Below are positions 83-17,335 of a stretch of DNA of 64,000 bases, one piece after another. Positions within the stretch are counted from its first letter, which is position 1, and every line of letters begins with the position of its first letter. The stretch spans positions 487,080-551,079 of the forward strand of contig NZ_JBIWFX010000002.1 of assembly GCF_044763225.1 (NCBI RefSeq). Direction: 5' to 3'. Source of the stretch: Kitasatospora sp. NPDC096147 (GTDB taxonomy: Bacteria; Actinomycetota; Actinomycetes; Streptomycetales; Streptomycetaceae). The notes beneath the pieces were generated by a model that was given only the letters and a program-made list of their open reading frames with translations, did no database searches and was not told where the DNA came from. Made by a program: the position numbers and the translations under genes.

Positions 83-427
83 ATGCGAGTCGTGATCGTC
101 TGGTGGGACCTCGCCGATTCGAAGGCGGGCCTGGACGAACTCCGCGCCTTCCTCCGGGAGGAGGCGGTCGAGCGGTTCACCGGCCACCCCGGGCTGGTCC
201 GCAAGACCTGGATCTCCGACCGGGCGGCGAACCGCTGGGGCGCCGTCTTCCTCTGGGAGTCCGCCGAGGCGGCCGACCGGCCGATCCTCCCGCCCCGGGC
301 GGTGGAGCTGATCGGCTACCCGCCCACCCACCGTGCCGCCTTCGACGTGGAGGCCACCGTGGAGGGTGCGGCGCACCTGCTGGCAGCCCTGCCCGGGCTC
401 GGGCTGGCGCACGATCCGGAGAGTTGA
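83..427 (+). CDS. YdhR-like small putative monooxygenase (ABM/Dabb-fold)
   Basis: 114-aa ORF with an ATG start. Its length and the FLWESAEAA / GxxKTW topology resemble the YdhR family. Codon usage is GC3-biased like its neighbours. Confidence 0.45.
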   Translation: MRVVIVWWDLADSKAGLDELRAFLREEAVERFTGHPGLVRKTWISDRAANRWGAVFLWESAEAADRPILPPRAVELIGYPPTHRAAFDVEATVEGAAHLLAALPGLGLAHDPES

Positions 428-571
428 CGCTCCGTCATGTCGGTTCCCGTCGCTGCCCGTTCCGCGCGGATCCGTCGAAGTAACGTAGCCCACCGCCGGG
501 TTGGCCCCGCTCTGGCGAGGCTCCAGTGGGCGGGCACTAGGATGGCACTCGTTCCGAACCGGGGAGGGCCG

Positions 572-1270
572 ATGGCGGCAGTACCGCTCCGGCGGCTACG
601 GGCAGCCGCCGTCAACATCGACGGTGTCATGCTGGACGACACCTTCAGCCCGGTGATCCACCACTTCGTCACCAGCCGGGGCGGCGCCTACACGGCCGAC
701 GTGGAGCGCCGGATCTTCTCGCAGAACCAGCGGCAGGCCGCCGAGGTCGCCGCCGAGGCGGCCGGTCTGGACTGGCCGGTCGAGCAGGTGCTGGAGGTCT
801 ACTTCCAGGAGCGCGCCGAGTACCTGGAGCGCCACCCGCTCCGGGTGCTGGACGGCGCCCCCGCGATGGTGGCCCGGCTGCGAGCCCTCGGGCTGCGCAC
901 CGTCTGCTACGGCGGCCTGGCCCGGCCGCACTTCGACCGCTTCCTCGGCGAGCACGCCGGGCTGTTCGACGATCCGGTCTACGTCTGCACCGACGCCTTC
1001 CGTCCCGGGGTCCGGGAGATCGTCACGGACGTGCTGGGGCTGGAGTTCGACGAGGTGCTCTTCATCGACGACGTGGCCCGGGTGGCCGAGACCGCGCGAG
1101 GGTTGGGCGCGGCGTTCATCGGTCACCCGAGCGGGTTCGAGCACGGCTTCCAGCCGCAGCTGATGAGGGCGGCCGGGGTCCGTCACCTGGCGGCCTCGCC
1201 GGCCGGGGTGGACGAGTGGCTGGTGCGCACGGTGGACGAGGAGTCCGCCAACGGGAAGCTCTGGGGCTGA
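572..1270 (+). CDS. HAD-superfamily hydrolase/phosphatase, candidate autoregulator-phosphate phosphatase
   Basis: The ORF (starts possible at 542 or 572) has HAD-like motifs, LFIDDV and GAAFIG. It ends 60 bp from the stop of the convergent AfsA-like gene. Confidence 0.6.
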   Translation: MAAVPLRRLRAAAVNIDGVMLDDTFSPVIHHFVTSRGGAYTADVERRIFSQNQRQAAEVAAEAAGLDWPVEQVLEVYFQERAEYLERHPLRVLDGAPAMVARLRALGLRTVCYGGLARPHFDRFLGEHAGLFDDPVYVCTDAFRPGVREIVTDVLGLEFDEVLFIDDVARVAETARGLGAAFIGHPSGFEHGFQPQLMRAAGVRHLAASPAGVDEWLVRTVDEESANGKLWG

Positions 1271-1330
1271 CTGCCGCAGGCGGACCGGGCAGACCGGGCG
1301 GACCCGACGGGCAGAGGTGCCGACGGTCGG

Positions 1331-2401
1331 TCAGGCCGGGCTGCAGACCCACGGGTGGCTGAGCTCGGCGCTCGCCCGGCTCTGGCCGTAGGCGTCGCCG
1401 CTGCTCCGGGTGCCGTTGAGCAGGCAGGTCGGCACGGTCAGGGTGCTGGTGAAGACCGTCCGTCCCTCCTGCTCGGCGCGGACCGCGACGGTGCGCCGGT
1501 TCGGGTGCTCGGCCGGCCGCTCGGTCGCCTCGATGAAACAGGGCGAGTCGAACTCCACGTAGTGGGTGAACTCGGAGTCGGCCGAGGAGACCAGGGTGGC
1601 CTCCGGCACCAGGATCCGGGCGGCCTGCCGGGCCGCCTCCAGCATCACCATGCCGGGCACGTGGTCGCCGGGGTGGTCGAAGAGCACCGGGTGCCGGGTG
1701 TCCAGCCGCAGCTGCCAGCGGTTCGTCTCGCCGATGCCGGAGAGCACCACGTCCTGCGGGGTCAGCCGCCCGACCAGCGCGGGCTCCACCGGCGGGGCCG
1801 GCTGGAGGTGCGCGGCGGGCGGGGTGATCCGGTTGTCCCGCACCCGGCGGTAGACCTCGGGGCTCATGAAGGTGGCGCTCACGTTGGCCACCGCCGCGAT
1901 CTGACCGTCCCTCAGGATCGTCATCTGGTACCGCAGGCCGGCCACCCGGCGGCCGTGCTGCCTGGTCACCGTGGTGCTGACCAGGACCTCCAGCTCAGCC
2001 GGGGTGTCCCGGACGGTGAGCTGGTGCAGGACGGCGGTGAACTCCAGGTCGTGCAGCAGAAATCGGCTCGTGAGAGGTACGGCGAACTCGGCGTGGGCGA
2101 GTAGAGTACCGACCTGCCGGATGGTTTCTGCTATGAGAGTGGAGTCGTGGTGAAGTCCATCGGGCGAGCTGAAGAAGCTGTGACCACGCGGCCACTGGGC
2201 GGAGACCGAGAAGAACCGGTCGTCGATCCGGCGCCAACGGGTCAGCAGCACCTCGGCCACGGCAGCGCGGTGCACCAGCTCCTTGGGCACCGTGGTGGTG
2301 AAAGACGCAGGTGGGGCCAGTAGGGAGTGCAGGGAAGTGGTGCTTGTCGGATGGTGCACCGCCTCGGCTCCGAGTGCGGTGGTCGAAAGCAGGTCGGACA
2401 T
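1331..2401 (-). CDS. afsA: AfsA/ScbA-family autoregulator (gamma-butyrolactone/butenolide/furan) synthase, two hotdog-fold repeats
   Basis: The translation aligns by eye along its whole length with ScbA/AfsA. Shared segments are ELVHR..V.EVLLT near the N-terminus and HP.LFDHPGDHVPGMVMLEAARQAA...EFDSPC in the second repeat. The start is chosen at MSDLL, which leaves a short N-terminal extension relative to ScbA. Confidence 0.8.
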   Translation of the reverse strand: MSDLLSTTALGAEAVHHPTSTTSLHSLLAPPASFTTTVPKELVHRAAVAEVLLTRWRRIDDRFFSVSAQWPRGHSFFSSPDGLHHDSTLIAETIRQVGTLLAHAEFAVPLTSRFLLHDLEFTAVLHQLTVRDTPAELEVLVSTTVTRQHGRRVAGLRYQMTILRDGQIAAVANVSATFMSPEVYRRVRDNRITPPAAHLQPAPPVEPALVGRLTPQDVVLSGIGETNRWQLRLDTRHPVLFDHPGDHVPGMVMLEAARQAARILVPEATLVSSADSEFTHYVEFDSPCFIEATERPAEHPNRRTVAVRAEQEGRTVFTSTLTVPTCLLNGTRSSGDAYGQSRASAELSHPWVCSPA

Positions 2402-2455
2402 GGTCCCCCCCAAAGGATCACTGTCAACGGACGGCGACGACGCGCAACAGGCACT

Positions 2456-2481
2456 TACAATACAGGGCAGCCGGTTTATTT
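2456..2481. promoter_or_regulatory. Candidate ARE (autoregulatory element) in the divergent afsA / receptor intergenic region
   Basis: TACAATACAGGGCAGCCGGTTTATTT matches the ARE consensus TNANAWACNNACYNNNCGGTTTKTTT at 17 of 20 specified positions, including CGGTTT.TTT. It lies between divergent afsA-like and TetR receptor genes. Confidence 0.35.
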
Positions 2482-2562
2482 GTAGACCCTGATACCTCGA
2501 ACTCCGGCAGTAGTTGACCTGCCTGTCATGAACAGATCAATGCAAGACGGGAGAGACCAGCC

Positions 2563-3198
2563 ATGGCACAGCAGGAACGTGCAGTTCAGACCAGGAGAAG
2601 CATCCTGCTCGGCGCGGCCCAGGTGTTCGACGAGTACGGATATGACGCCGCCTCGATCAAGGAGATCCTGGCGCGGGCGCAGGTGACGAAGGGGGCGCTC
2701 TACTTCCACTTTCCTTCGAAGGAGGAGTTGGCCCGCGGAGTCCTGCAGGAACAGACGGTCTATCTGGACATTCCGGATAACGTCTCCAAGCTCCAGGAAT
2801 TGATCGACCTGACGATGGCGGTGGCGCACATGCTGCCGGTCGACCCATTGTTGCGGGCCGGCCTGCGCCTGGCCATGGAGCGCGGCTCGGTGGACTTCTC
2901 CGAGAGCAATCCGCTGCTCGCCTGGGCGCGGATCTGCGGTGAGCTGCTGGAGGAGGCCAAGCTGCGCGGCGAGGTGCTGACCCAGGTGGAGGGCAAGGAG
3001 ACGGCCGAGATGCTGGTCGCCAGCTTCGCCGGGGTGCAGACCTTCTCGCAGGCGACCACCGGGCTGAGCGACATGGAGGAGCGGGTCTCGGTGCTCTGGC
3101 GCCACCTGCTGCCCACCATCGCGCTGCCGGCCACCCTGGTGCGGCTGGATGCCCAGCCGGGGCGCGGGGCGAAGGTGGTGCAGCAGATCGTCGGCTGA
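2563..3198 (+). CDS. TetR-family gamma-butyrolactone receptor (ScbR/ArpA-like)
   Basis: The N-terminus MAQQERAVQTRRSILLGAAQVFDEYGYDAASIKEILARAQVTKGALYFHFPSKEELA is near-collinear with ScbR/ArpA HTH regions. The gene is divergent from afsA-like. Confidence 0.8.
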   Translation: MAQQERAVQTRRSILLGAAQVFDEYGYDAASIKEILARAQVTKGALYFHFPSKEELARGVLQEQTVYLDIPDNVSKLQELIDLTMAVAHMLPVDPLLRAGLRLAMERGSVDFSESNPLLAWARICGELLEEAKLRGEVLTQVEGKETAEMLVASFAGVQTFSQATTGLSDMEERVSVLWRHLLPTIALPATLVRLDAQPGRGAKVVQQIVG

Positions 3199-3282
3199 GT
3201 GGTGCACGGGGGAGCGGTGCCCGGACGGCGGAGGGGCGGACACTCCGTCAGGCCGGGCCCCCGGCCGGGGCGTTCACGGCGG

Positions 3283-3365
3283 GTCACTCCACGGGGGAGA
3301 AGGACGCCGGGCCGTCCACGGGGGAGCAGGGCGCCGGGCCGTCCACGGGGGAGCGGGGCGTCACC
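3283..3365. repeat. 27-bp tandem repeat (~3 copies) encoding an SPVDGPA(P/S) tail
   Basis: tccacgggggag[aag/cag/cgg]g[a/g]cgccgggccg repeats three times. It is in frame at the 3' end of the pseudo-receptor gene. Confidence 0.7.
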
Positions 3366-3967
3366 CGCAGACCGGCCAGCTGATCGGCCGGGACCAGTAA
3401 GGGGAGGACGGCCTCCCAGAGCCGGGTGATCACCTTCGGGTCCAGCCAGTTCCGGTCCCGCCGGGCGATGATCTCCACCCCGGCGGTGGCGGCGGCGAGC
3501 AGACCGGCCGCCTCCTCGACGCCGGCTCCGGAGTGCAGCCGTCCGGCGGTCGAGCAGCGGGTCAGCTCGCGGTTGACCAGCCGCACCCAGGCCGGGTGCG
3601 GATTCGGCCGCTGGTCCTCGGGCAGGCCGTTGTCGTCGGTGAGCCGCAGGCCGGCCCGGAAGACGATGTCGGTGGCGAGCAGGTGCGCCAGGCCGTGGCT
3701 GAGGTCGATCAAGTACTGGAGCGGGCATCCGGCGGAGTGCCGGGCCCGGCGGACGACCTCACGCAGTCCGCGCCTCGACTCCGCGATGACCGCTTCGGCC
3801 AGGAGTTCCTTGGAGCCGAAATGGAAGTAGAGCGCGCCCTTGGAGATCCCGGTCGGCCGGGTCACGTCGTTCAGACCGGTCGTCGCGAAGCCGACTTGAT
3901 CGAATGAGGCGGCAGCGGCCCTGATCAGAAGCTTGCGGGTGCGTTCGGCGCGTTCCTGACGGGCCAT
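3284..3967 (-). CDS. Second TetR-family receptor homologue (pseudo-receptor, ScbR2/MmyR-like) with repetitive Pro-rich C-terminal tail
   Basis: MARQERAERTRKLLIRAAAASFDQVGFATTGLNDVTRPTGISKGALYFHFGSKELLAEAV is a receptor-type HTH. It has a distinct ligand-domain sequence and the C-terminus SPVDGPAPCSPVDGPASFSPVE. Confidence 0.75.
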   Translation of the reverse strand: MARQERAERTRKLLIRAAAASFDQVGFATTGLNDVTRPTGISKGALYFHFGSKELLAEAVIAESRRGLREVVRRARHSAGCPLQYLIDLSHGLAHLLATDIVFRAGLRLTDDNGLPEDQRPNPHPAWVRLVNRELTRCSTAGRLHSGAGVEEAAGLLAAATAGVEIIARRDRNWLDPKVITRLWEAVLPLLVPADQLAGLRVTPRSPVDGPAPCSPVDGPASFSPVE

Positions 3968-4047
3968 CGAGGATCCTCCCTGGCGGCCCACGGCGGCCTC
4001 GCGCGAAGACCCCGGTTTGCTGAGTGTTCATCTCCGGGGGTAGCGTA

Positions 4048-4070
4048 ACAAACCGCTTACCCGGTATTTC
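4048..4070. promoter_or_regulatory. Candidate receptor operator upstream of the pseudo-receptor gene
   Basis: ACAAACCGCTTACCCGGTATTTC contains inverted half sites AAACCG and CGGTAT. This resembles the ArpA half-site CGGT(A/T)(T/C). It sits in the promoter region of the minus-strand TetR gene. Confidence 0.3.
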
Positions 4071-4250
4071 TAAGGTCTGTCATGTTCCCCCTGGTGACCT
4101 TGCGCTGCCTGCGCGTAAGATGACGGAGTCTCTAAAACCAACCAGTCGGTTCTGTACTGTTATCCATCACCAGCATCTCGCTGCCTGGCTGCGGCGCCGT
4201 CCGGCGCCCGGCTGCCACCAGGTGGCGACACGGAGGAGGGGACGGGGGCT

Positions 4251-5465: not shown

Positions 5466-5565
5466 TGGCGATCCGGGGGCGGGAGACGAGGACGGCCGGG
5501 GCGGCCGGTGCACGGGTGTGCGCCGGCCGGTCCCCGGCCGCCGTCCCGCTCGGCGGTGGCGAGGG

Positions 5566-5812: not shown

Positions 5813-6688
5813 TCAGTCCGCGCGGCGGAGCAGCTCCTCCTGGGCGGCCCGGCGCAGCGCCGCGACCGGCACGTCGCTCCGGCCGGTGAGCAACTCCAGC
5901 TGCCGGGCGGCCTGGTGGACCGCGAAGGAGACCCCGTCCACCACGGTGGAGCCCGCGAAGCCGGCCGCCTTGACCAGCCGGGTCGGCCAGGCCGAGGTGA
6001 CCACGTCGAAGACGGCGGCCCGGGAGTGCATCACTGCGGCGGCGAAGGCGTCGGCTCCGCCGGCCGGCAGGGTGGAGATCACCAGTCCGGCGCCGGGCAG
6101 CAGCTGCTCCAGGCTGCCGAAGGTGTGCACGTCCACGGCGATGCCGAGCCGGCCGGCTGCGGCGGTGGCCTCGGCCGCCCGGCTGCGTTCGCGGACCACC
6201 ACCGAGGGCTCCAGCACGCCGAGTTCGCGCAGTGCGGCCAGCGCCGAGCAGGCCGTGGCGCCGCCGCCGAGCACGACCGCCGAGCCGGGTGAAGTGACCC
6301 CGGCCTCGCGCATCGCGGTGAGCATCCCGTACACGTCGGTGCTCTCGCCGTGGCTGCGTCCGCGGCGGAACACCACGGTGTTCACCCCGCCGACGTCCAG
6401 CCCCAGGTCGGAGACCTCGTCGATCAGCGGCAGTACGGCCCGCTTGAGCGGCATGCCGAGCGCGAGACCGGCCCAGCCGCCCTCCAACCCGGCGAGCACG
6501 TGCGGGAGTTCGGTCTCGTCGCACTCGATGTTCTGGTACGACCAGTCCAGGCCCATGGCGGTCAGGCCGGCCCGGTGCAGGGCGGCGGTGATGGACTGGC
6601 CGACGGGGGAGCCGAGCACCGCGGTGCGGCGGGCGGCCTGGCGGGGCGGCGTGCTGCTCTCCAGCACGGGGGGCTGTGCGATGCGCAT
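5813..6688 (-). CDS. aroE: Shikimate dehydrogenase family (AroE-like), extra copy
   Basis: MRIAQPP..AVLGSPVGQSITAALHRAGL...MPLKRAV...GGVNTV...VVLGGGATACSALAAL matches the AroE N-terminal substrate and NADP-binding topology. The start is chosen at the ATG at 6688. Confidence 0.7.
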   Translation of the reverse strand: MRIAQPPVLESSTPPRQAARRTAVLGSPVGQSITAALHRAGLTAMGLDWSYQNIECDETELPHVLAGLEGGWAGLALGMPLKRAVLPLIDEVSDLGLDVGGVNTVVFRRGRSHGESTDVYGMLTAMREAGVTSPGSAVVLGGGATACSALAALRELGVLEPSVVVRERSRAAEATAAAGRLGIAVDVHTFGSLEQLLPGAGLVISTLPAGGADAFAAAVMHSRAAVFDVVTSAWPTRLVKAAGFAGSTVVDGVSFAVHQAARQLELLTGRSDVPVAALRRAAQEELLRRAD

Positions 6689-6993
6689 CGTCGTACTCCT
6701 TTCGCCAGGGGGGAACGGCCTACCGGACGGGCAGGTTCCACTCACTGTCCCGGTGTCAGCCCAGCTTAGGTAGCACCCCGCCGGAACGGGCGGGCCGGTT
6801 GACACAGAGTCACGTTCGAGGACGACCTGACGGGATTCCCGGCACACTCCGTCACGCACCGTGGAATGACATGCCCACGATGCTATTTGCCTGGTAATCG
6901 GATAGCTGACATGGTCCCGAACCTACGTTTGATAGGTCGTGTAAAGGATCCGCAGGCTTCCCGTCGGGTTGATCGAACGATCGCCCGAGCGTA

Positions 6994-7010: not shown

Positions 7011-7030
7011 GGTACGGGAACGGGGAGCCG

Positions 7031-8509
7031 ATGCTGTCACGTAGGAACGTCCTGAAGACCGGTGTGCTCACCACGGGGGTGGTCGGAGCGGCCGGACTGG
7101 CCAGCCCGGTGCTCGGCCGGCGGGACGCGGAGGCGGCCGAGCCGGCCGGCGGCGCGGGGCCCGAGGCGATCGGCGCACCTGCGGTGATCCCGCAGTTCGC
7201 GGTCCCGCTCACGGTGCCGCCGGTGCTCTCGCCGCTGCTCTCCAGTGGCACCACCGACTACTACCTGATGACCATGAAGAAGCTGTCGAAGGAGGTGGTG
7301 CCGGGCAAGCGGACCGAACTCCTCGGCTACAACGGGCTGGTGCCCGGCCCCACCATCCGGGCCAGGAAGGGCCGCCGGGTGGTGATCCGGCAGACCAACC
7401 TGCTGGACACGCCGGTCTCGGTGCACCTGCACGGCGCCGAGGTGCCGGTGGACAGCGACGGCGCGCCGATGGACACCATCGCCCCCGGTGGCAGCAAGGT
7501 CTATACGTACCCCAACAACCAGCCGGCCGCGCCGCTGTGGATCCACGACCACGCCCACCACCACGAGTCGGAGCACGTCTACCGGGGGCTCTCCTCGGTC
7601 TACCTGATCGGCGACGACAACGAGCAGTCGCTGGGCCTGCCGTCCGGCCCGTACGACGTGCCGCTGGTGATCCGGGACGGCCGGTACGACGAGAACGGCC
7701 AACTCGTCTACATCATGGACGACTTCAGGAACCGCACCACCATCACGGTGAACGGCTCCCCGTGGCCGTACCTCCGGGTCGCGGCCCGCAAGTACCGCTT
7801 CCGGGTGCTCAATTCGGCGAACACCAGATTCCTCTCGCTCCGGCTCTCGAACGGCGGCACCTTCACCCAGATCGGGGTGGACGGGGGGCTGCTGGAAGCC
7901 CCGCACGAGACCGCCGTGCTGCCGGTGTCACCCGGTGAGCGGGCCGACGTGGTGATCGACTTCTCCCGCTACCCGGTCGGCACCCAGCTGGTGCTGGAGA
8001 ACACCCTCGGGCCCGGGCCGGTCGAGCAGGTCGGGAAGGTGATGCGCTTCGACGTGGTCCGCACCGCGTCCGACGACTCCACCGTGCCGGCCCGGCTGGC
8101 CACCCTGCCCACCCCGCTGCCGGCCACCGTCAGCCGGAGCTTCGTGCTGCGGATGGACGAGGACGGCCGGGCCGAGCCGCAGGCGTACATCAACGGACGG
8201 AGCTTCGACCAGGCCCGGATCGACGTCCGGATCCCCTGGGGCTCGACCGAGGTGTGGACGGTGTCCAACGCCAACACCACCGCCCCGCACAACTTCCACC
8301 TGCACCTGGTGCAGTTCCGCGTCCTGGAGCGGAACGGGCAGCCGCCGGCCCCGGGCGAGGCCGGACTCAAGGACACCGTCCGGGTGCTGGCGGGGGAGAC
8401 GGTCAAGCTGCTGATCAGCTTCCGGAGCTACCGGGGCGTGTACGCCTACCACTGCCACATGTTCGACCACGGAGCGATGGGAATGATGGGGCAGATGGAG
8501 ATCTACTGA
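7031..8509 (+). CDS. Tat-secreted multicopper oxidase (laccase-like)
   Basis: Twin-arginine signal MLSRRNVLKTG. Copper-binding motifs are HLHG, HDHAHHH and HCHMFDHGAMGMMG. Confidence 0.85.
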   Translation: MLSRRNVLKTGVLTTGVVGAAGLASPVLGRRDAEAAEPAGGAGPEAIGAPAVIPQFAVPLTVPPVLSPLLSSGTTDYYLMTMKKLSKEVVPGKRTELLGYNGLVPGPTIRARKGRRVVIRQTNLLDTPVSVHLHGAEVPVDSDGAPMDTIAPGGSKVYTYPNNQPAAPLWIHDHAHHHESEHVYRGLSSVYLIGDDNEQSLGLPSGPYDVPLVIRDGRYDENGQLVYIMDDFRNRTTITVNGSPWPYLRVAARKYRFRVLNSANTRFLSLRLSNGGTFTQIGVDGGLLEAPHETAVLPVSPGERADVVIDFSRYPVGTQLVLENTLGPGPVEQVGKVMRFDVVRTASDDSTVPARLATLPTPLPATVSRSFVLRMDEDGRAEPQAYINGRSFDQARIDVRIPWGSTEVWTVSNANTTAPHNFHLHLVQFRVLERNGQPPAPGEAGLKDTVRVLAGETVKLLISFRSYRGVYAYHCHMFDHGAMGMMGQMEIY

Positions 8510-9312: not shown

Positions 9313-9329
9313 CGACGCGTCACCCCGAC

Positions 9330-9374
9330 GGCAGCGCAGTGGATGCGGGAATTCCCGTAATCCGCTGCGCTGCC
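9330..9374 (+). terminator. Compound stem-loop downstream of wrbA
   Basis: ggcagcgcag...ctgcgctgcc forms a 10-bp stem. It encloses an inner perfect palindrome cgggaattcccg. Confidence 0.3.
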
Positions 9375-9486
9375 CGTATTACGTGCAACTGACGAAGTCA
9401 GCCGACCCTCATTGCCGCACTCCGCGCGGCTGCCCCAGAGTTCTCGGAAGGAGAACGCTTCGAATTACCCGGCGAAGGGGCAGCGG

Positions 9487-9972
9487 ATGTCGACGGTGAC
9501 GATCTCCTGGACGGTACCGGTCAATTCCGGGACGGAGTCCGGGCCTGCACGGATGGACGCGCACGGGCTGTGGCGGCAGTTGGTCGCCAAGGCCGAGAAT
9601 CCCGTGCCCTACGTCCCCGCGATCACCGAGTGCACCGTACTCGACCGGTTTCCCGGTGGATTCCACCGGAGCATCGTCCGGGACGGCCGCACCGTGTTCC
9701 AGCGCATCGAAATGGAGCCCGGGGACGAGATCGTCTACCGGCAGCCCGGCGACAGCGAGGTGCGGGCGATCAGCAACCGGATCGACCGCACCGAGGACGG
9801 CTCGCTGGCGCTGACCATCTCGGTCGACCTGGCCCCCGAGGGGATCGAGCGCGCGGTCCGCGAGAGCAGGTTCCTGGAGGCCGCGGACGCCTACTTCACC
9901 GACGCGCTGCGCGCCGTGATCGACGAGATCCGGGCCGCCGTCTCCCCCGTCGAGCTGACCAACGCCGCCTGA
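9487..9972 (+). CDS. Hypothetical protein, possible SRPBCC (polyketide cyclase/START-like) fold
   Basis: 161-aa ORF with an ATG start at 9487. Size and hydrophobic pattern are compatible with an SRPBCC ligand-binding protein. This is a weak call. Confidence 0.4.
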   Translation: MSTVTISWTVPVNSGTESGPARMDAHGLWRQLVAKAENPVPYVPAITECTVLDRFPGGFHRSIVRDGRTVFQRIEMEPGDEIVYRQPGDSEVRAISNRIDRTEDGSLALTISVDLAPEGIERAVRESRFLEAADAYFTDALRAVIDEIRAAVSPVELTNAA

Positions 9973-10007: not shown

Positions 10008-10769
10008 ATGACCGCACGATTCGACGGCAAGGTCGCCCTGGTCACCGGTGGCGGCTCGGGCATCGGCCGCGCCACCGCGCTGGCCTTCGCCCGGGAGGGG
10101 GCCACCGTGATGGTGGCCGGCCGCGAGCCGAGCGAGCTGCGGGAGACCGTGGCCCTGATCGAGGAGGCGGGCGGCAAGGCCGACTGCATCCGCGCCGACG
10201 TCACGCACGGCATGGACGTCATCAAGCTGGTGCAGTCCACCGTGGACCGCCACGGCGGGCTGCACATCGCCTTCAACAACGCCGGAGTGATGGGCCGTCC
10301 GAGCCCGCTGGCCGAGGTCTGCGAGGCGGTCTGGGGCGACATCCTGTCCACCAACCTGACCGGTGCCTGGCTGCTGATGAAGCACGAGATCGCCCACATG
10401 CGCGAGCACGGCGGCGGCGTGATCGTGAACACCGCGGCCAACATCGGCATCCACGGCCGGATCCCCGGTTTCGGCGCCTTCGCGGCCTCCAAGGCCGCGC
10501 TCTCCACGCTGACCCGGACGGCCGCCCGGGAGTACATCCGGGAGGGCATCCGGATCAACGCGATCAGCCCCGGCACGGTCGACACCGACCAGGGCCGCCG
10601 CTACAACGAGACCGAGGAGCAGCGGGACGAGCGGGTCCGCAGCGGCGTGCCGATCGGCCGGGTCGCCCGGACCGAGGAGATCGCCGACACCGTGCTCTGG
10701 CTCTCCGGCGACGAGTCCAGCTTCGTGGTCGGTCACGACCTGGTGCTGGACGGCGGGGCCACGGCCTGA
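10008..10769 (+). CDS. SDR-family oxidoreductase
   Basis: An AGGAGG RBS sits 6 bp upstream. GKVALVTGGGSGIGRA is the Rossmann motif. Catalytic S...Y...K spacing is present. Confidence 0.85.
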   Translation: MTARFDGKVALVTGGGSGIGRATALAFAREGATVMVAGREPSELRETVALIEEAGGKADCIRADVTHGMDVIKLVQSTVDRHGGLHIAFNNAGVMGRPSPLAEVCEAVWGDILSTNLTGAWLLMKHEIAHMREHGGGVIVNTAANIGIHGRIPGFGAFAASKAALSTLTRTAAREYIREGIRINAISPGTVDTDQGRRYNETEEQRDERVRSGVPIGRVARTEEIADTVLWLSGDESSFVVGHDLVLDGGATA

Positions 10770-11902
10770 TGACGGGCATCCTGCGGCGGCTCTCCGAGGA
10801 GGGCGTCTCGCTCTGGTTGGACGGCCTCGGCCGGGACCGGCTGGCCGACGGACGGCTGGCCGAGCTGGCCGGGGACCGGTCCGTGGTCGGGGTGGTGGCC
10901 ACCCCGTCGGCCGGCCCGGCCTACCACCGGCAGCTGGCGGAGCTGGCCGCCCGGGGTGCCTCGGCGGCGGTCGCGCTGCGCGAGCTGACGGTCCGTGACC
11001 TGCACGGGGTCTGCACCCTGCTGGATCCGATCCACCGCTGCACGGCCGGCTCGGACGGGCTGGTCTCGGCCGCGGTCGACCCGGCCTTCGCCCGGGGCAC
11101 GCTGGCCGCGCTGGCCGAGGCCCGGGCGCTGTACCGGGCGGTGGACCGCCCCAACCTGCTGGTCGAGCTGCCGGCCACGGTCGAGGCGCTGCCCGCCGTC
11201 ACCCGCTGCCTGGCCGAGGGGATCGGCGTGCACGTCTCGCTGGTGCTCTCGCCCGAGCGGTACGGCCAGGTGCTCGAGGCCTTCCTGACCGGCCTGGAGC
11301 TGGCCGCCGAGCAGGGCCGGGACGTCTCCCGGATCAACTCGGTGGCCGCGGTGCCGGTCGGCCTGCTGGACGCGGTGGTGGACCACGCGCTGGACGCGAT
11401 CGGCACCGAGGAGGCCCGGGCCTTCCGGGGCCAGGCCGGCCCGGCGCTGGCCAGGCTCGCCTACCGGCGCTACGAGGCGGAGTTCGCCTCGCCGCGCTGG
11501 ACGGCGCTGGCCGCGCTCGGCGCCCGGCCGCAGCGGCTGCTCTGGAGCCACACCGGCACCGACGGCGGCCCCGGCCGCCGGGACACCCGGTACGTGGACG
11601 AGCTGGTCGCCCCGAACACCGTCACCGCCGTCACCGAGCGGACCCTGGCCGCCGTCGCCGAGCACGGCCGCCCGGCCCGGGCCCAGCGGTTCGCCGCCGG
11701 GTACGCCGACGCGGAGCGGGTGCTGGGCTACCTGGAGTGGTTCGGCCTGGAGCTGGCCGAACTGCTCGACGGGCTGGAGCGGGAGTCGCTGGCCGGCCTG
11801 CGCCGGACCCGCACCGAGCTGCTGGAGTCCGTGCTGGCCCGGCTCACCGAGGTCCGGGAGTCGGAGCTCCAGGACGCCGGGGCTCCGCCGGCCGGGCACT
11901 AG
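10769..11902 (+). CDS. tal: Transaldolase (actinobacterial long form), extra copy
   Basis: The ATG overlaps the SDR stop (ATGA coupling). LSEEGVSLWLDGLGRD and later blocks are collinear with transaldolase. Confidence 0.75.
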   Translation: MTGILRRLSEEGVSLWLDGLGRDRLADGRLAELAGDRSVVGVVATPSAGPAYHRQLAELAARGASAAVALRELTVRDLHGVCTLLDPIHRCTAGSDGLVSAAVDPAFARGTLAALAEARALYRAVDRPNLLVELPATVEALPAVTRCLAEGIGVHVSLVLSPERYGQVLEAFLTGLELAAEQGRDVSRINSVAAVPVGLLDAVVDHALDAIGTEEARAFRGQAGPALARLAYRRYEAEFASPRWTALAALGARPQRLLWSHTGTDGGPGRRDTRYVDELVAPNTVTAVTERTLAAVAEHGRPARAQRFAAGYADAERVLGYLEWFGLELAELLDGLERESLAGLRRTRTELLESVLARLTEVRESELQDAGAPPAGH

Positions 11903-12086: not shown

Positions 12087-13319
12087 ATGGCGAAGATCCT
12101 GATAGCCGGTGGTGGTATCGGCGGCCTGGCGACCGCGCTGAGCGTCTCCCGCCGGGGCCACCAGGTGGTGGTGCTGGAGAGCCGGGACACCTTCACCGAG
12201 CTCGGGGCCGGCATCCAGCTCGGCCCGAACGCCTTCCACGCGCTGGACGTGCTCGGCGTCGGCGACGAGGTCCGCTCGCGGGCCGTGCACATCGACGAGC
12301 TGCGCTTCATGGACGGCACCACCTCCGAGCTGGTCGTCACCATGCCGCTGACCGGCGCCTACCGGGAGCGCTTCGGCAACCCGTACGCGGTGGTGCACCG
12401 GATCGACATCTACGCCCCGCTGCTGGACGCGGCCCGCGCCTCGGACGCGATCGAACTGCGCACCGACGCCCAGCTGCTGAGCTACCGTCAGGACGCCGAG
12501 GGCGTCACCGCCGTGCTGGCCTCCGGCGAGGAGGTCCGGGGCGAGGCGCTGATCGGCGCGGACGGCATCAACTCCTACGTCCGCAAGCAGCTGGTCGGCG
12601 ACGGCTTCCCGCAGGTCTCCGGGCACACCATCTACCGCTCGGTGATCCCGATGGAGAAGGTGCCGGAGGAGCTCCGGTGGAACACCGTGACGCTCTGGGC
12701 CGGCCCCAAGTGGCACTTCGTCCACTACCCGATCGGCGGCGGCAAGTACTTCAACCTGGCGGCCACCCGGGACGACGACGCCCGGGAGGCGGTGATCGGC
12801 GCCCCGGCCGAGAAGGACTTCGTGCTCAACGAGTTCCCCGACCTGGGCGAGATCCCGCGCCGGCTGCTGGAGCTCGGCGAGGACTGGAAGGCCTGGGTGC
12901 TCTGCGACCGCGACCCGGTCGAGCAGTGGACCGACGGCCGGGTGGTGCTGATCGGCGACGCCGCGCACCCGATGCTCCAGTACGCCGCCCAGGGCGCCTG
13001 CCAGGCGGTCGAGGACGCGGTGGTGCTGGGCCAGGTGATCGGCACCGAGGCGTGCGAATTCCCGCAGCGCTTCGAGAAGTTCAACGGCGAGCGGCGCCAG
13101 CGCACCGCCGCCACCCAGCTGGTCGCCCGGGAGATGGGCAAGCAGCTCTACCACCCGGTCGGCGAGGCCGCGAAGGCGCGCAACGCGCTGCTCGCCTCGC
13201 TCACCCCGGAGCAGCTGTACGACAAGGTGGAGTGGCTGCACGGCAGCCGGGTCGGCGACGGCACCGTCATCGAGCCGCCGGTGATCGGTCGTCGGGCCGC
13301 CACCGCCGGGGAGCACTGA
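12087..13319 (+). CDS. FAD-dependent aromatic hydroxylase (salicylate / 3-hydroxybenzoate 6-hydroxylase-like)
   Basis: [18 protein letters not shown] is the FAD GxGxxG fold. DG.NS.VR and GDAAH motifs are typical of class A flavoprotein monooxygenases. Confidence 0.85.
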
Positions 13320-13321
13320 CC

Positions 13322-14506
13322 GTGGGCGGCCTGCGCTGGCTGACCGCGGGCGAGTCGCACGGCCCGGCCCTGCTGGCCACCCTGGAGGGCCTGCCGGCGG
13401 GCGTGCCGGTGACCACCGACGCGGTCACCGCCGAGCTGGCCCGGCGCCGGCTCGGCCACGGCCGGGGTGCCCGGATGGCCTTCGAGCAGGACGAGGTCAG
13501 CCTGCTCGGCGGGGTCCGGCACGGCGAGACCATCGGCAGCCCGGTCGCGGTCATGGTCGGCAACACCGAGTGGCCCAAGTGGGAGCAGGTGATGGCGGCC
13601 GACCCGGTCGATCCCGAGGTGCTCGCCGGGCTGGCCAGGAACGCACCGCTGACCCGTCCGCGCCCCGGCCACGCCGACCTGGCGGGCATGCAGAAGTACG
13701 GCTTCGACGAGGCCCGGCCGGTGCTGGAGCGGGCCTCGGCCCGGGAGACCGCCGCCCGGGTCGCGCTCGGCACGGTGGCCAGGTCCTTCCTGCGGGTGGC
13801 CGCCGGGATCGAGATCGTCTCGCACGTGGTCGGCCTCGGCCGGGCCACCGCCCCGTCCTGGCTGACGCCCCGTCCGGCCGACCAGCCGTACCTGGACGCC
13901 GATCCGGTGCGCTGCCTGGACCCGGAGAGCTCGGCCCGGATGGTGGACGAGATCGACCGCGCGCACAAGGACGGCGACACCCTGGGCGGCGTGGTCGAGG
14001 TGCTGGCCTACGGCCTCCCCGTCGGGCTCGGCTCGCACGTGCACTGGGACCGCCGCCTGGACGCCCGGCTGGCCGCCGCCCTGATGGGCATCCAGGCGAT
14101 CAAGGGCGTCGAGGTCGGCGACGGCTTCGACCTGGCCCGCCTCCCCGGCTCACAGGCGCACGACGAGATCGTGCCCACCCCGGCGGGCCTGCGCCGGGCC
14201 TCGGCCCGGGCCGGCGGGGTGGAGGGCGGCATCTCCACCGGCGAGACCCTGCGGGTGCGGGCGGCCATGAAGCCGATCGCCACCGTCCCGCACGCGCTGC
14301 GCACGGTGGACGTCCGCACCGGCGAGTTCACCCCGGCCCACCACCAGCGCTCCGACGTCTGCGCCGTCCCGGCGGCCGGCATCGTGGCCGAGGCGATGAC
14401 CGCCCTGGTGCTGGCCGACACGGTGCTGGAGAAGTTCGGCGGCGACAGCGTCGCGGAGACCGCCCGCAACCTCTCCGGCTACCTGGACGCCCTGACCATC
14501 CGTTAG
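13322..14506 (+). CDS. aroC: Chorismate synthase, extra copy outside the aroCKB context
   Basis: GTG start 3 bp after the upstream stop. [11 protein letters not shown]...GHADL...RSSARET are AroC signature blocks. Confidence 0.85.
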
Positions 14507-14635
14507 GGACCGCCTCCTCGGTGGTGCCGCGCGGCCCGGCCCGGAATCCCCCTCCGGGCCGGGCCCGCACCGGAGTTGACGAAGTATCGGGCCGCGCTTC
14601 ACGGCCCCCTCCCGCCCGGATCCACGATTGTCGGT

Positions 14636-15730
14636 ATGGAGAGAGACATGCAGTTCGGTCTGTTCACCGTCGGCGACCTGACCGCCGACCCGCACACCGG
14701 GCGCCTGCCGAGCGAGCAGGAGCGGATCAAGGCCACGGTCGCGATCGCCCGCAAGGCCGAGGAGGTCGGCCTCGACGTCTTCGCCACCGGCGAGCACCAC
14801 AACCCGCCGTTCGTCACCTCCTCGCCGACCACGCTGCTGGCGTTCATCGCCGCGCAGACCGAGCGGATCATCCTCTCCACCTCCACCACGCTGATCACCA
14901 CCAACGACCCGGTGAAGATCGCCGAGGACTTCGCGGTGCTCCAGCACCTGGCCGACGGCCGGGTGGACCTGATGATGGGCCGGGGCAACACCGGCCCGGT
15001 CTACCCGTGGTTCGGCAAGGACATCCGCGAGGGCATCCCGCTGGCGATCGAGAACTACGCGCTGCTGCACAAGCTCTGGCGCGAGGAGGCGGTCGACTGG
15101 AAGGGCCGCTTCCGCACCCCGCTCCAGGGCTTCACCTCGGTGCCCCGGCCGCTGGACGACGCGCCGCCGTTCGTCTGGCACGGCTCGATCCGCAGCCCCG
15201 AGATCGCCGAGCAGGCCGCGTACTACGGCGACGGCTTCTTCGCCAACCACATCTTCTGGCCGACCGACCACTTCCGGAAGCTGATCGAGCTCTACCGGAC
15301 CCGGTACGCGCACTACGGTCACGGCTCCCCCGAGCAGGCGTACGTCGGCCTGGGCGGGCAGATCTTCATCGGGAAGGACTCCCGGCAGGCCGTCCGGGAC
15401 TACCGCCCGTACTTCGGCAACACGGCGGTCTACCGGGGCGCGGTGCTGGAGGACTACCTGGAGGCCACCCCGCTCACCGTGGGCAGCCCGCAGCAGGTGA
15501 TCGACAAGACCCTGACCTTCCGCGAGCACTTCGGCGACTACCAGCGCCAGCTCTTCCTGATGGACAACGGCGGGATGCCGCTGAAGGTGGTGCTGGAGCA
15601 GCTCGACCTGCTCGGTGAGCACGTCCTGCCGGTGCTGCGCAAGGAGTTCGCGCTCGGCCGCCCGGTCGAGGTGCCGGCCGGTCCGATCCACGAGGACCGG
15701 GTGGTCATGACCGGGCGGACCGAGTGGTGA
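14636..15730 (+). CDS. Luciferase-like flavin-dependent monooxygenase (LLM class)
   Basis: MQFGLFTVGDL...GEHHN...MMGRGNT is typical of FMNH2/F420-dependent LLM oxidoreductases. Start candidates are 14636 or 14648. Confidence 0.8.
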   Translation: MERDMQFGLFTVGDLTADPHTGRLPSEQERIKATVAIARKAEEVGLDVFATGEHHNPPFVTSSPTTLLAFIAAQTERIILSTSTTLITTNDPVKIAEDFAVLQHLADGRVDLMMGRGNTGPVYPWFGKDIREGIPLAIENYALLHKLWREEAVDWKGRFRTPLQGFTSVPRPLDDAPPFVWHGSIRSPEIAEQAAYYGDGFFANHIFWPTDHFRKLIELYRTRYAHYGHGSPEQAYVGLGGQIFIGKDSRQAVRDYRPYFGNTAVYRGAVLEDYLEATPLTVGSPQQVIDKTLTFREHFGDYQRQLFLMDNGGMPLKVVLEQLDLLGEHVLPVLRKEFALGRPVEVPAGPIHEDRVVMTGRTEW

Positions 15731-16356
15731 GCCGCCTGGTGGTGGTCTCGGCCGGGCTGAGCGACCCGTCCTCGACCCGGCTGCTGGCCGACCGGCTGAC
15801 CGCCGCCACCGCCCGCCGCCGGCCGGTCGAGAGCCGGGTGGTGGAGCTGCGCGAGCTGGCCGTGGACGTGGCCAAGCACCTGGTCAGCGGCTTCCCCTCG
15901 GCGGCGCTGCGGGAGGTGCAGGAGGCGGTGGGCGGGGCCGACGCGCTGATCGCGGTGACGCCGGTCTTCACCGCGTCCTACAGCGGCCTGTTCAAGTCCT
16001 TCTTCGACGTGCTCGACCCGACCGTGCTGGCCGGCAAGCCGGTGCTGCTCGGTGCCACCGGCGGCTCCACCCGGCACTCGCTGGCGCTGGAGCACGCGCT
16101 GCGCCCGATGTTCGTGTACCTGCGCGCCGTGGTGCTGCCGACGGCGGTCTACGCCGCTTCGGCGGACTGGGGCGCGGGGGTGGAGGGCGGCACCGAGGAG
16201 CTGGCCTCCCGGATCGACCGTGCCGGGGCCGAACTGGCCGCCGCCCTCGGTGCGTCCGGCTCCCCTTCGGTGTCCGACGGTCGAAATGCCGGTGCACCGG
16301 CCGAGGCCGAACTCATACCGTTCGCACAGCAGTTGGCCGCACTGGGCCTGGAGTGA
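15724..16356 (+). CDS. NAD(P)H-dependent FMN reductase (partner of the LLM)
   Basis: The GTG start overlaps the LLM stop. VVVSAGLSDPSSTRLL...PVFTASYSGLFKSFFD resembles the SsuE/MsuE family. Confidence 0.75.
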   Translation: MVSRLVVVSAGLSDPSSTRLLADRLTAATARRRPVESRVVELRELAVDVAKHLVSGFPSAALREVQEAVGGADALIAVTPVFTASYSGLFKSFFDVLDPTVLAGKPVLLGATGGSTRHSLALEHALRPMFVYLRAVVLPTAVYAASADWGAGVEGGTEELASRIDRAGAELAAALGASGSPSVSDGRNAGAPAEAELIPFAQQLAALGLE

Positions 16357-16378
16357 CCGCACACCTGGAGGGACGGGC

Positions 16379-17335
16379 ATGAGCACCGAGCAGCAGACCG
16401 GGCAGACCGGACGGAAGGAGCACGTCCGGGCTCCGCAGCACTTCACCACCCGGCTCACCTCGGACGGCCGGGAGGGCCGGCCGGTGGAGGCCGGCCGGTA
16501 CCGGCTGGTGGTCAGCCGGGCCTGCCCGTGGGCCCACCGGGTCGTGCTGGTACGGGAGTTGTTCGGTCTCCAGGACGCCATCACGCTGGCCGTCACCGAC
16601 CCGGTGCAGGAGATGATCGACGGCGAGTACCACTGGGTGTTCAGCGAGCGGAACGGCGACCCGGACGGCAGGGACGCGGTGCTCGGCATCCACGCGCTGC
16701 GCGAGGCCTACCTGGCCGCCGAGCCGGACTACACCGGCGGGGTCAGCGTGCCGGGTCTGGTGGACACCCGGACCGGCCACCTGGTGAGCAACGACTTCGA
16801 GAACCTCACCCTGGACCTGGCCACCGAGTGGAAGGACCTGCAGACCGCCACCGAGGTGCCCGACCTCTACCCGGAGCACCTGCGGGCCGAGATCGACGCG
16901 CTCAACGCGGTGGTCTACGACGAGGTGAACGTCCAGGTGTACCGGGCCGGCTTCGCCCCCACTCAGGAGGTCTACGACCGCGCGGTGGTCTCGCTGTTCC
17001 ACCGGCTGGACCGGCTGGAGGAGCGGCTGCGCGAGCAGCGCTTCCTGCTGGGCGCGGAGTACACCGAGGCGGACCTGCGGCTGTGGACCACGCTGGTGCG
17101 GTTCGACATGGTCTACCACGGCCACTTCAAGTGCAACGTGCGGAAGTTGACCGAGTACCCGGCGCTCTGGGGCTACACCCGGGACCTCTACCAGACCCCG
17201 GGCTTCGCCGAGACGGTCGACTTCGACCACATCAAGCGGCACTACTACGCCACCCACGAGCACCTGAACCCGACCCGGATCGTGGCGATCGGTCCGGATC
17301 CGGAGATCTTCCTCACCCCGCACGGCCGGGGCTGA
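16379..17335 (+). CDS. Xi-class glutathione transferase / glutathionyl-hydroquinone reductase (YqjG/ECM4-like)
   Basis: The CPWAHR active-site motif is present. The length and C-terminal blocks match GS-hydroquinone reductases. Confidence 0.8.
   Translation: MSTEQQTGQTGRKEHVRAPQHFTTRLTSDGREGRPVEAGRYRLVVSRACPWAHRVVLVRELFGLQDAITLAVTDPVQEMIDGEYHWVFSERNGDPDGRDAVLGIHALREAYLAAEPDYTGGVSVPGLVDTRTGHLVSNDFENLTLDLATEWKDLQTATEVPDLYPEHLRAEIDALNAVVYDEVNVQVYRAGFAPTQEVYDRAVVSLFHRLDRLEERLREQRFLLGAEYTEADLRLWTTLVRFDMVYHGHFKCNVRKLTEYPALWGYTRDLYQTPGFAETVDFDHIKRHYYATHEHLNPTRIVAIGPDPEIFLTPHGRG

Follow-up and report, generated by a model that had tools for sequence, protein, structure and literature searches.

The stretch analysed here, referred to as the window, comprises 64,000 nucleotides (nt) of Kitasatospora sp. 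NPDC096147 (contig NZ_JBIWFX010000002.1, positions 487,080 to 551,079). Its left part carries a gene cassette for an AfsA-type autoregulator signal, a gene resembling IS701 transposases (the DDE_5-like gene) and an array of redox and aromatic-metabolism genes (Table 1). This region may best be read as one portion, the right-hand one, of a locus that is conserved in Streptomycetaceae and has the autoregulator cassette embedded among genes for a chorismate-derived aminophenol or quinone, a model that as a whole is given a probability of about 0.55. Genes were called with a codon-position G+C log-odds score, the window having ~73% G+C, and the called proteins were scanned against Pfam and NCBIfam. 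Nearly all identities proposed in an original prediction, made from the letters of the window, hold in these family profiles. For synteny, one genome per species was scanned with the AtaL-like protein of the array, yielding nine Kitasatospora loci that span the whole region, while a tenth locus (L011) holds a paralogous pair of AtaL-like and short-chain dehydrogenase/reductase (SDR) genes elsewhere and not the full region. More distant loci were taken from the neighbourhoods of DDE_5-like orthologues in S. scabiei, Streptacidiphilus pinicola and S. anulatus. Operator alignments included ten Kitasatospora sequences and two loci outside that genus (L012 and L015), hairpins were assessed by z-score against 200 shuffled sequences, and dN/dS and dS are pairwise Nei-Gojobori estimates. 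A scan of positions 1-19500 for consensus promoters and terminators returned no promoters and two terminators against four expected, which is uninformative at 73% GC, and an Rfam scan of positions 1-20500 at E <= 0.1 gave zero matches.

Table 1. Features of the region in window coordinates, with the evidence for each assignment.
Feature	Position	Strand	Evidence
Small ydhR/ABM-like protein, first cassette gene in the window	83..427	+	Pfam ydhR 26.1 bits, just under gathering score
HAD-fold protein, convergent with afsA	572..1270 (alternative start 437)	+	Pfam Hydrolase 27.1 bits, gathering score 26.4
AfsA/ScbA-family autoregulator synthase	1331..2413	-	PF03756 twice, 152 bits; NF041195 (ScbA/BarX equivalog) 348.6 bits, cutoff 200
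ARE operator 1, afsA-receptor intergenic region	2456..2481 (core 2460-2477)	.	Core match; AATACAGG-C--CCGGTTT-TTT
Autoregulator receptor TetR1, acidic	2563..3198	+	NF041196 216.6 bits, cutoff 150; pI 5.2
Pseudo-receptor-type TetR2, basic	3284..3967	-	NF041196 174 bits, cutoff 150; pI 9.3
ARE operator 2, TetR2-proximal	4045..4070 (core match at 4050)	.	TAACAAACC...CGGTAT
ARE operator 3, 18-mer	4135..4152	.	AAACCAACCAGTCGGTTC; ~95 nt upstream of the DDE_5-like GTG start
IS701-derived, catalytically degenerate (DDE_5-like) gene, 404 aa	4251..5465	+	DDE_5 143.7 bits; IS701 NF033540 291.7 bits, cutoff 150
Accessory shikimate dehydrogenase (aroE paralogue), convergent with DDE_5-like gene	5813..6688	-	NF001311 243.9 bits, cutoff 235
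Conserved element, aroE/array divergent promoter region	6800..6812	.	TGACACAGAGTCA; palindrome-like, not ARE-like
Tat-exported three-domain multicopper oxidase (MCO)	7031..8509	+	Cu-oxidase_3/_2/Cu-oxidase; SRRNVLK; HxH/HCH copper motifs
WrbA NAD(P)H:quinone oxidoreductase	8695..9312	+	TIGR01755 168.8 bits, cutoff 132.5
Terminator-like hairpin after WrbA	9328..9377	+	z = -5.6; 0/200 shuffles fold as well
AtaL-like protein	9487..9972 (likelier start 9487)	+	PF08982, 57 bits
SDR oxidoreductase	10008..10769	+	adh_short_C2 190.8 bits; no equivalog above cutoff
Divergent transaldolase-like protein (TAL)	10769..11902	+	TAL_FSA 102.5 bits; start overlaps SDR stop
3-Hydroxybenzoate-6-hydroxylase-like FAD monooxygenase (Pau17-like)	12087..13319	+	NF006021 487.3 bits, cutoff 459
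Chorismate synthase aroC, second copy	13322..14506	+	TIGR00033 434.6 bits
GC hairpin after aroC	14529..14568	+	z = -4.3; 0/200 shuffles fold as well
CE1758-family FMN-dependent luciferase-like monooxygenase (LLM)	14576..15730	+	TIGR04036 646.8 bits, cutoff 479.1
CE1759-family FMN reductase, LLM partner	15724..16356	+	TIGR04037 259.5 bits, cutoff 175.9
Xi-class glutathione S-transferase (GST), S-glutathionyl-(or thiol)-hydroquinone reductase type	16379..17335	+	GST_C_2, GST_N_2; CPWA at residue 49
Small secreted protein	17680..18048	+	Signal peptide in translation; no Pfam match
EamA-family exporter	18184..19122	-	EamA 64.9 bits; kept in relatives

The autoregulator cassette consists of a synthase gene, two tetR genes and two accessory genes. 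The synthase shows two tandem AfsA hotdog repeats and scores above the curated family cutoff, and both regulators combine a TetR N-terminal helix-turn-helix with a ScbR-family C-terminal domain, so that the AfsA synthase and the two ScbR-family TetRs named in the original prediction all pass their family cutoffs. The best PDB matches of the two regulators are AvaR1, a gamma-butyrolactone (GBL) receptor, MmfR and CprB, the best for TetR1 being the avenolide receptor AvaR1 (185 bits). As a rule of thumb, genuine receptors are acidic and pseudo-receptors basic, and the acidic TetR1 and basic TetR2 would, as expected by that rule, form a receptor/pseudo-receptor pair. TetR2 is basic in seven of ten loci and adjoins the DDE_5-like gene in every receptor-bearing locus. 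The ydhR/ABM-like gene has orthologues in L003 and L006. As to the gene convergent with afsA, earlier read as a HAD phosphatase, the gene and its orientation hold, but the family call is marginal and motif I is atypical, reading NIDGV (N-x-D-x-V) and not D-x-D-x-T/V, the same in three genera (window 572-1270, L012 2455-3159 and L009 2446-3141). Because the nucleophilic Asp of motif I is replaced by Asn, the HAD-like protein may not be a conventional phosphatase. Single TTA codons, which are bldA-dependent, occur in TetR2 (codon 190, counted from a start at 3991) and in the DDE_5-like gene (codon 61); as a regulatory signal they were given no weight, being sporadic, found at different positions in a few orthologues and not conserved.

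Three operators of the autoregulatory element (ARE) type lie within the cassette, two of which had been proposed before and proved to be phylogenetically conserved, the third and invariant one being added here. Operator 1 is kept in S. scabiei and in the Kitasatospora loci that share the cassette version of the window (type A, see below), and operator 2 in all ten Kitasatospora sequences as well as in L012 and L015. Operator 3 is invariant in 10/10 Kitasatospora sequences, with equivalents at L012 7980 and L015 7929, and is followed by a conserved TA-n3-T hexamer and then a Shine-Dalgarno sequence. The paired sites between TetR2 and the DDE_5-like gene have equivalents in S. scabiei and Streptacidiphilus and are absent from loci without an adjacent receptor gene. 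A search of the whole window for the ARE core gave six matches against 3.9 expected, which is not above chance alone, so that the evidence is conservation, spanning 6-10 loci and three genera; the only three good sites (2460, 4050 and 4135) are all in the cassette. Two weak matches with two mismatches each, upstream of the small secreted gene (17612-17629) and between the EamA gene and a glycosidase-like gene (19157-19174), are within chance. The putative direct targets, judged by the conserved operators, are thus afsA, the genes of receptor and pseudo-receptor, and the DDE_5-like gene, but not the array.

Other DNA elements were noted around the DDE_5-like and aroE genes. The palindrome-like element in the aroE/array promoter region is exact in eight of ten Kitasatospora sequences, has one to two mismatches in L002 and L007 and is unique in the window. 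Each Kitasatospora locus has it a single time and neither the Streptomyces nor the Streptacidiphilus loci have it, for which reason it cannot be taken for a recurring binding site. The DDE_5-like gene has a GC-rich hairpin (~4185-4215) in its 5' leader, with a stem that differs between clades yet stays self-complementary, a covariation-like pattern. An 18-nt tandem repeat (consensus GCCGTGAGGGCTCGGGCT, ~7 copies at 5575-5733) fills the spacer between the convergent DDE_5-like and aroE genes, which in relatives is only 19-138 nt long.

The gene order around the cassette is conserved beyond the genus. In Kitasatospora, the backbone of the locus reads AfsA cassette, TetR2, DDE_5-like gene, aroE (minus strand), variable array, small secreted protein, EamA exporter (minus strand), glycosidase-like gene and acyl-CoA synthetase gene. 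S. scabiei and Streptacidiphilus pinicola share the core order of AfsA cassette, basic TetR, DDE_5-like gene, aroE (minus strand), WrbA and 3-hydroxybenzoate-6-hydroxylase (3HB6H)-like hydroxylase, and Streptacidiphilus also carries the LLM and GST genes. The linkage between cassette and array appears not to be accidental, because in all nine Kitasatospora loci, as also in S. scabiei and Streptacidiphilus pinicola, the AfsA cassette adjoins pseudo-receptor, DDE_5-like, aroE and redox genes. Whether the array would always accompany the afsA module had been posed as a question of synteny; the linkage to aroE and the redox genes is found in these 11 loci of three genera, but the full array content is not constant. 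To the left of the AfsA cassette, relatives encode a fused Chorismate_bind-then-GATase protein, i.e., the PhzE domain order, and a PhzD-like isochorismatase. The left flank in Streptacidiphilus also has a class II 3-deoxy-D-arabinoheptulosonate 7-phosphate (DAHP) synthase and an SDR that passes, with 334 bits against a cutoff of 300, the equivalog for 2,3-dihydro-2,3-dihydroxybenzoate dehydrogenase (DhbA). All four functions occur in L015 and a subset in L012, L004, L009 and L003. In L003, the closest relative with the same cassette type, the GATase end of the PhzE-like gene lies just left of the ydhR-like gene, and bases 1-37 of the window are nearly identical to the hairpin following that PhzE-like gene. 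The chromosome to the left of the window would be expected to resemble that of the relatives.

Between the autoregulator and redox modules lies the DDE_5-like gene, which the earlier description had passed over; a transposase in such a place would ordinarily hint at a chance joining of the two. It occupies the same position in nine Kitasatospora loci, S. scabiei and Streptacidiphilus (11 species, three genera) and is the most conserved gene of the locus, with 87-100% amino acid identity among the Kitasatospora loci compared with 67-95% for aroE and 50-81% for TetR2. Its protein was compared with four mobile IS701 transposases from annotated plasmids, namely ISRso17 (four copies on each Ralstonia megaplasmid) and elements of Rhodococcus, Rhizobium and Streptomyces. 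The mobile elements have the motifs W(I/V)IDDTGF(P/A)K, ADA(G/A)YG and RWR(I/V)E(R/H)DY; at these places WVLNSMAIPK, VLDARE and RRVAKDF are found in the protein of the window and in its syntenic orthologues. In the window protein the D, D, E triad has become N, D, A (DDT to NSM, and the catalytic Glu to Ala), with two of the three catalytic residues gone. Among these proteins, the Asp of the first position is missing or varies, that of the second persists without the YG, and Ala, Ser or Gly takes the place of the Glu. Among 1.84 billion representatives, a profile search returned at least 630 clusters (50% identity) at E <= 1e-30, and an intact D-D-E is found in 0/155 aligned family members versus 4/4 mobile references. 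An AlphaFold model (pLDDT 86, pTM 0.87) matches full-length Tn5 transposase (E 3e-12, TM ~0.57), so that the Tn5-like architecture, including the N-terminal DNA-binding region, is retained. Judged by these residues and this fold, the protein appears to be a catalytically dead transposase and not a mobile element, and its gene, lying behind operator 3, is the likeliest candidate for the output regulator of the cassette.

Several contexts of the family touch on secondary metabolism. The orthologue of S. scabiei 87.22 was annotated as a 'putative secondary metabolite regulator' by its sequencers, a name that has since been propagated, and annotation pipelines name the gene a transposase, as in ten sampled distant clusters that are all labelled 'IS701 family transposase'. 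Distant members lie beside AfsA/HAD genes (two), beside a terpene cluster (one) and in a PabAB/FAD/AMP-ligase cluster (one). In S. anulatus, an orthologue with 67% identity directly follows a gene for an AfsR-like Streptomyces antibiotic regulatory protein (SARP) and a 54-amino-acid gene. The same SARP (51704-55009; BTAD, AAA and TPR, 1101 amino acids) and a rhomboid gene (47313-48242), both immediate neighbours of the S. anulatus orthologue, are found ~45 kb to the right in the window, a co-occurrence that reflects a chromosomal neighbourhood shared with S. anulatus.

Read together, these features suggest a signal-controlled pathway. At low signal, the receptor and/or the pseudo-receptor would bind the three ARE operators, one before afsA and the receptor gene and two between the pseudo-receptor and the IS701-derived gene, and these promoters would be released as the AfsA-made signal accumulates. 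The IS701-derived protein, with its fold kept and its triad lost, could then serve as a DNA-binding output regulator, presumably an activator, of the flanking transcription units, in parallel to the tylosin cascade, where the TylP receptor acts on the TylQ repressor and this on tylR. For the chemistry, the PhzE-, PhzD-, DhbA- and DAHP-synthase-like genes seen left of the cassette in relatives would lead from chorismate to 3-hydroxyanthranilate, which the 3HB6H-like enzyme of the window may convert into an aminohydroquinone. Interconversion or detoxification of the quinone and hydroquinone forms would fall to WrbA, the MCO, the Xi-class GST and the LLM/FMN-reductase pair, and more precursor would come from the extra aroE, aroC and transaldolase, joined in relatives by aroA, aroK and DAHP synthase. 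The chorismate-derived hydroquinone or quinone foreseen in the original prediction is therefore plausible by analogy and can be narrowed to a 3-hydroxyanthranilate derivative, because the left-flank functions and the 3HB6H-like enzyme match the set for ring A of paulomycin; the core of the locus would accordingly be predicted to make a hydroxylated 3-hydroxyanthranilate, i.e., an aminohydroquinone or aminoquinone. That such a pathway would be missed by standard rules for biosynthetic gene clusters is doubtful, as the butyrolactone (AfsA) rule of antiSMASH would flag such a region.

The array itself is less uniform than a single pathway operon would be. The identities of its ten co-directional redox and aromatic genes, of the divergent aroE and of the downstream small secreted and EamA genes hold in Pfam and NCBIfam; the small secreted protein is kept in the Kitasatospora loci that reach that far, and the S. 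scabiei orthologue of the FAD hydroxylase scores 468 bits. The MCO is under all NCBIfam cutoffs, and the transaldolase-like protein is under every curated cutoff, its best NCBIfam score being 325.6 against 367. The proposed ten-gene operon with short or overlapping junctions is not borne out. Its gaps are, in order, 185, 174 (with the AtaL-like start at 9487), 35, -1, 184, 2, 69, -7 and 22 nt, and hairpins follow not only WrbA and aroC but also the GST gene (z = -4.1, no shuffle as good). The AtaL-like gene is present in 9/9 Kitasatospora loci, WrbA is also kept in S. scabiei and Streptacidiphilus, and aroE is found in all loci except S. anulatus. The MCO is absent in L004, L005, L009 and L010, the transaldolase in L007-L010, and aroC is missing from the array in L004, L005, L009, L010 and L012. 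L004 and L005 also lack the LLM, reductase and GST genes. In L007 and L008, 5-enolpyruvylshikimate-3-phosphate (EPSP) synthase stands where the window has the transaldolase; in L002, an aroA separates TAL from the hydroxylase; and in L006, additional genes lie between aroC and the LLM gene, and a shikimate kinase gene (383-922) is found to the left, beside the cassette. Judging from the EPSP synthase (aroA-equivalog) genes of relatives (L002 12461-13735, L007 11732-12985, L009 10498-11844), aroA appears to have been lost from the window, leaving the 184-nt gap between TAL and hydroxylase. The likely units are MCO with WrbA; the AtaL-like gene, SDR and TAL with hydroxylase and AroC; and LLM, reductase and GST, and these correspond to modules gained or lost among the relatives. 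The single-operon claim fails because of the internal hairpins, the 185-, 174- and 184-nt gaps and the independent inheritance of modules. In general, comparative data are needed before co-directional arrays in high-GC actinomycetes are taken for single operons or coherent pathways.

This modular make-up is one of several points that weigh against a signal-controlled aminoquinone pathway. The array is a mosaic, split by hairpins and variable in content. Besides the window, just its two closest relatives have all ten of the genes, and L009 and L010 keep only aroE and the AtaL-like gene, followed by aroA and a GlcD-like oxidase. The search of the whole window found no ARE core in the aroE-MCO promoter region, so that the array is presumably not a direct target of the receptor; of the proposed signal gating, the linkage to AfsA thus stands, but gating would probably be indirect, most plausibly via the DDE_5-like gene. 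The DDE_5-like protein is a candidate regulator that has no known binding site, and its S. anulatus orthologue lies in a locus without AfsA cassette, aroE, adjacent receptor or ARE. The window starts just past the position of the PhzE-like gene, and the PhzE and PhzD genes are known from the loci of relatives only; the enzymes that would commit chorismate lie outside the window, and the product is predicted from the relatives. Several array genes (WrbA, MCO, Xi-class GST and the LLM/FMN-reductase pair) are of kinds that are also typical of stress response or detoxification. Finally, a kinship of the DDE_5-like protein with TylR and SgcR3 (see below) is a lead by description and not by sequence.

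Much of this could also be explained if the array were a quinone or oxidative-stress detoxification island, or an aromatic-catabolism island, that came to lie beside the autoregulator locus by chance, with no regulatory or biosynthetic tie. This explanation is unlikely, yet it accounts for the modules gained and lost between species, the hairpins, the lack of an ARE before the array and the generic character of WrbA, Xi-GST, MCO and the widespread CE1758/CE1759 pair. A second pair of AtaL-like and SDR genes, away from any AfsA gene, fits it as well: this pair (L011 9956-11334; 42% and 66% identity) belongs to the assembly that also contains L008 and has unrelated surroundings there, for which reason AtaL-SDR seems to be a portable two-gene module. 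It does not explain why the linkage of aroE, WrbA and the 3HB6H-like gene to the AfsA cassette and PhzE/PhzD persists across Kitasatospora, Streptacidiphilus and S. scabiei, nor why aroE, aroC, aroA, aroK, DAHP synthase and TAL, superfluous for detoxification, recur, and the array genes include no ring-cleavage dioxygenase for a gentisate-type route.

The cassette has been exchanged between very close relatives. In a comparison of window positions 1331-3967 with L002, L004, L005, L006 and L010, the synthase/receptor cassette occurs in two versions that are only 34-44% identical and opposite in gene orientation: type A has afsA (minus strand), receptor (plus strand) and the HAD-like gene, which is kept in type-A cassettes, and type B has receptor (minus strand), afsA (plus strand) and a gene of the NAD-epimerase family. 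The cassette type is followed in part by the pseudo-receptor. Type A is found in the window and L003 and type B in L002, though aroE and the DDE_5-like gene are 95-100% identical among the three, and L009 and L010 differ in cassette type as well. Because the versions do not follow the species tree, the signalling cassette appears to be an exchangeable unit beside a fixed output gene, and such loci may offer a natural system in which private signalling channels diversify.

It could be speculated instead that the IS701-derived protein is no transcription factor but a relic that binds DNA and marks or promotes a hotspot of recombination, with exchangeable cassettes to its one side and a mosaic array to the other as the result. 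The swap of the cassette between close relatives with near-identical DDE_5-like and aroE genes, the variable array content immediately to the right and the full transposase fold would all agree with this, which is nonetheless improbable, as a protein without the triad would be unable to cut or join DNA itself. Selection also argues otherwise. At a dS equal to that of its neighbours (0.25-0.58), the DDE_5-like gene has a dN/dS of 0.02-0.20, compared with 0.11-0.57 for aroE, 0.27-0.61 for TetR2 and 0.28-0.56 for the AtaL-like gene, i.e., 3-5 times lower. The gene is under strong purifying selection, which together with the invariant operator at its promoter points to a regulated cellular function, and its distant members lie beside unrelated biosynthetic clusters.

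A fixed and decaying insertion sequence at 4251-5465, whose insertion joined both modules, is very hard to credit, even though the protein passes the IS701 equivalog and pipelines call it a transposase. The frame is intact at one site in 11 species of three genera, no flanking pair of terminal inverted repeats was found within 3900-5900, and the window holds a single copy. Its flanks look in alignment like normal conserved DNA of promoters and intergenic regions, with promoter, operator and Shine-Dalgarno sequence conserved. The gene is thus presumably no IS701 insertion sequence, because its triad is not intact, inverted repeats are lacking, the site is fixed and the window has one copy. It is just as improbable that aroE, aroC and transaldolase are the housekeeping copies for aromatic amino acids, although aroC and aroE pass equivalog cutoffs and aroC is ~80-82% identical to typical Streptomycetaceae chorismate synthases, for Kitasatospora sp. 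NPDC096147 has another chorismate synthase (80% identical) on a separate, 117-kb contig, as the L006 organism and K. atroaurantiaca also have two each, aroC and TAL are missing from the locus in several relatives, and the transaldolase is under every curated cutoff.

The array aroC is accordingly a genuine second copy. Both aroC and TAL are accessory, given this second copy of aroC and the presence or absence of both genes among relatives, a pattern that the MCO shares, and aroE because S. anulatus lacks it at the DDE_5-like site. The accessory nature of aroC and the transaldolase had been proposed before, and the alternative that the array is ubiquitous core metabolism unlinked to afsA is contradicted, as aroC, TAL, MCO and aroE are accessory and the locus is cassette-linked.

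On a wider scale, the DDE_5-like proteins may constitute a large actinomycete family of domesticated, dead transposases that act as cluster-situated transcription factors, here as a direct output of the receptor/pseudo-receptor pair, uniformly mislabelled 'IS701 family transposase' and possibly the unrecognised origin of activators of the TylR/SgcR3 type. This proposal is tentative and somewhat less probable than not. In the literature on transposase-like autoregulator targets or domesticated transposases in Streptomyces, nothing explicit was found, and likewise no explicit statement on the domain family of TylR, AcyB2 and Srm40. A paper on a 'new family of regulators' was rejected as a parallel, as it concerns the unrelated Aur1O/TylU coactivators. 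The most conserved gene of the locus, behind an invariant receptor operator, is one routinely dismissed as a transposase and, if the proposal holds, may represent a new class of signal-output regulators. Conserved in at least three Streptomycetaceae genera, the locus as a whole would tie a switch operated by a diffusible signal to a pathway that is free of polyketide synthases (PKS) and nonribosomal peptide synthetases and leads from chorismate to an aminophenol or quinone, with a concrete product hypothesis.

Further to the right, positions 22136-38254 hold other regulator and stress genes, namely those for a flavohaemoglobin, a 1133-amino-acid Big_13/GEVED surface protein and a multi-PAS protein of 1129 amino acids whose receiver domain is weak, as well as two adjacent sigma-70-family genes.

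Compared with known systems, the cassette resembles those of AfsA-ArpA, ScbA-ScbR-ScbR2, BarX-BarA-BarB and SrrX-SrrA-SrrB in its two-hotdog synthase, divergent acidic receptor and basic pseudo-receptor, and it shares the palindromic intergenic operators of the AAACC-N8-GGTTT type with GBL and butenolide cassettes. Unlike in those, the best-conserved operator of the window fronts the IS701-derived gene and not a SARP gene, the accessory enzyme is HAD-like with an atypical motif I, two exchangeable cassette versions occur at one site, and the receptor is nearest to the avenolide receptor AvaR1. TylR, SgcR3, AcyB2 and Srm40 are activators of ~400 amino acids without a classical regulator domain. 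The locus is tylosin-like in that a receptor-family TetR would control a gene for a non-classical regulator of ~400 amino acids, a likeness by size, TetR control and legacy annotation; unlike in tylosin, there is no adjacent SARP or TylU-type helper, and the targets are not a PKS cluster. In the tylosin system, tylR is repressed by the receptor-like TylQ, which is controlled by the TylP receptor (PMC10372049), and SgcR3 has 395 amino acids (PMC2657911). With IS701 transposases such as ISRso17, the DDE_5-like protein shares homology over the full length, the N-terminal DNA-binding region and the Tn5-like fold, but its gene lacks the D-D-E triad and inverted repeats, is single-copy in the window and syntenic, and is under purifying selection.

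The closest parallel for the chemistry is ring A of paulomycin, whose genes pau17-pau21/plm14-plm18 encode a 3-hydroxybenzoate-6-hydroxylase-like FAD enzyme, a PhzE-type 2-amino-2-desoxyisochorismate (ADIC) synthase, a PhzD isochorismatase, a 2,3-dihydro-2,3-dihydroxybenzoate (2,3-dihydro-DHB) dehydrogenase and a DAHP synthase (PMC4425429, PMC4802897). The proposed route leads from chorismate via ADIC and 2,3-dihydro-3-hydroxyanthranilate (DHHA) to 3-hydroxyanthranilate and a hydroxylated quinone-like ring (PMC4425429, PMC4802897), and Pau17 is annotated as a 3-hydroxybenzoate 6-hydroxylase, as is the FAD enzyme of the window (PMC4425429). In Streptacidiphilus, all five of these functions are found around the AfsA cassette, in S. 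scabiei four; within the window, only the hydroxylase is present. Unlike the paulomycin cluster, the locus has no glycosyltransferases, paulic-acid genes or second hydroxylase, and it has extra aroE, aroC, TAL and quinone-handling genes attached. Gentisate catabolism would also use an enzyme such as the FAD hydroxylase, which scores above the 3-hydroxybenzoate 6-monooxygenase equivalog cutoff, but was rejected, since the Pfam scan of the array genes found neither a gentisate (cupin) dioxygenase nor a maleylpyruvate isomerase or a hydrolase. The locus thus combines known kinds, an autoregulator-controlled pathway and a ring-A-type 3-hydroxyanthranilate cassette, and the domesticated-transposase regulator would be new if confirmed.

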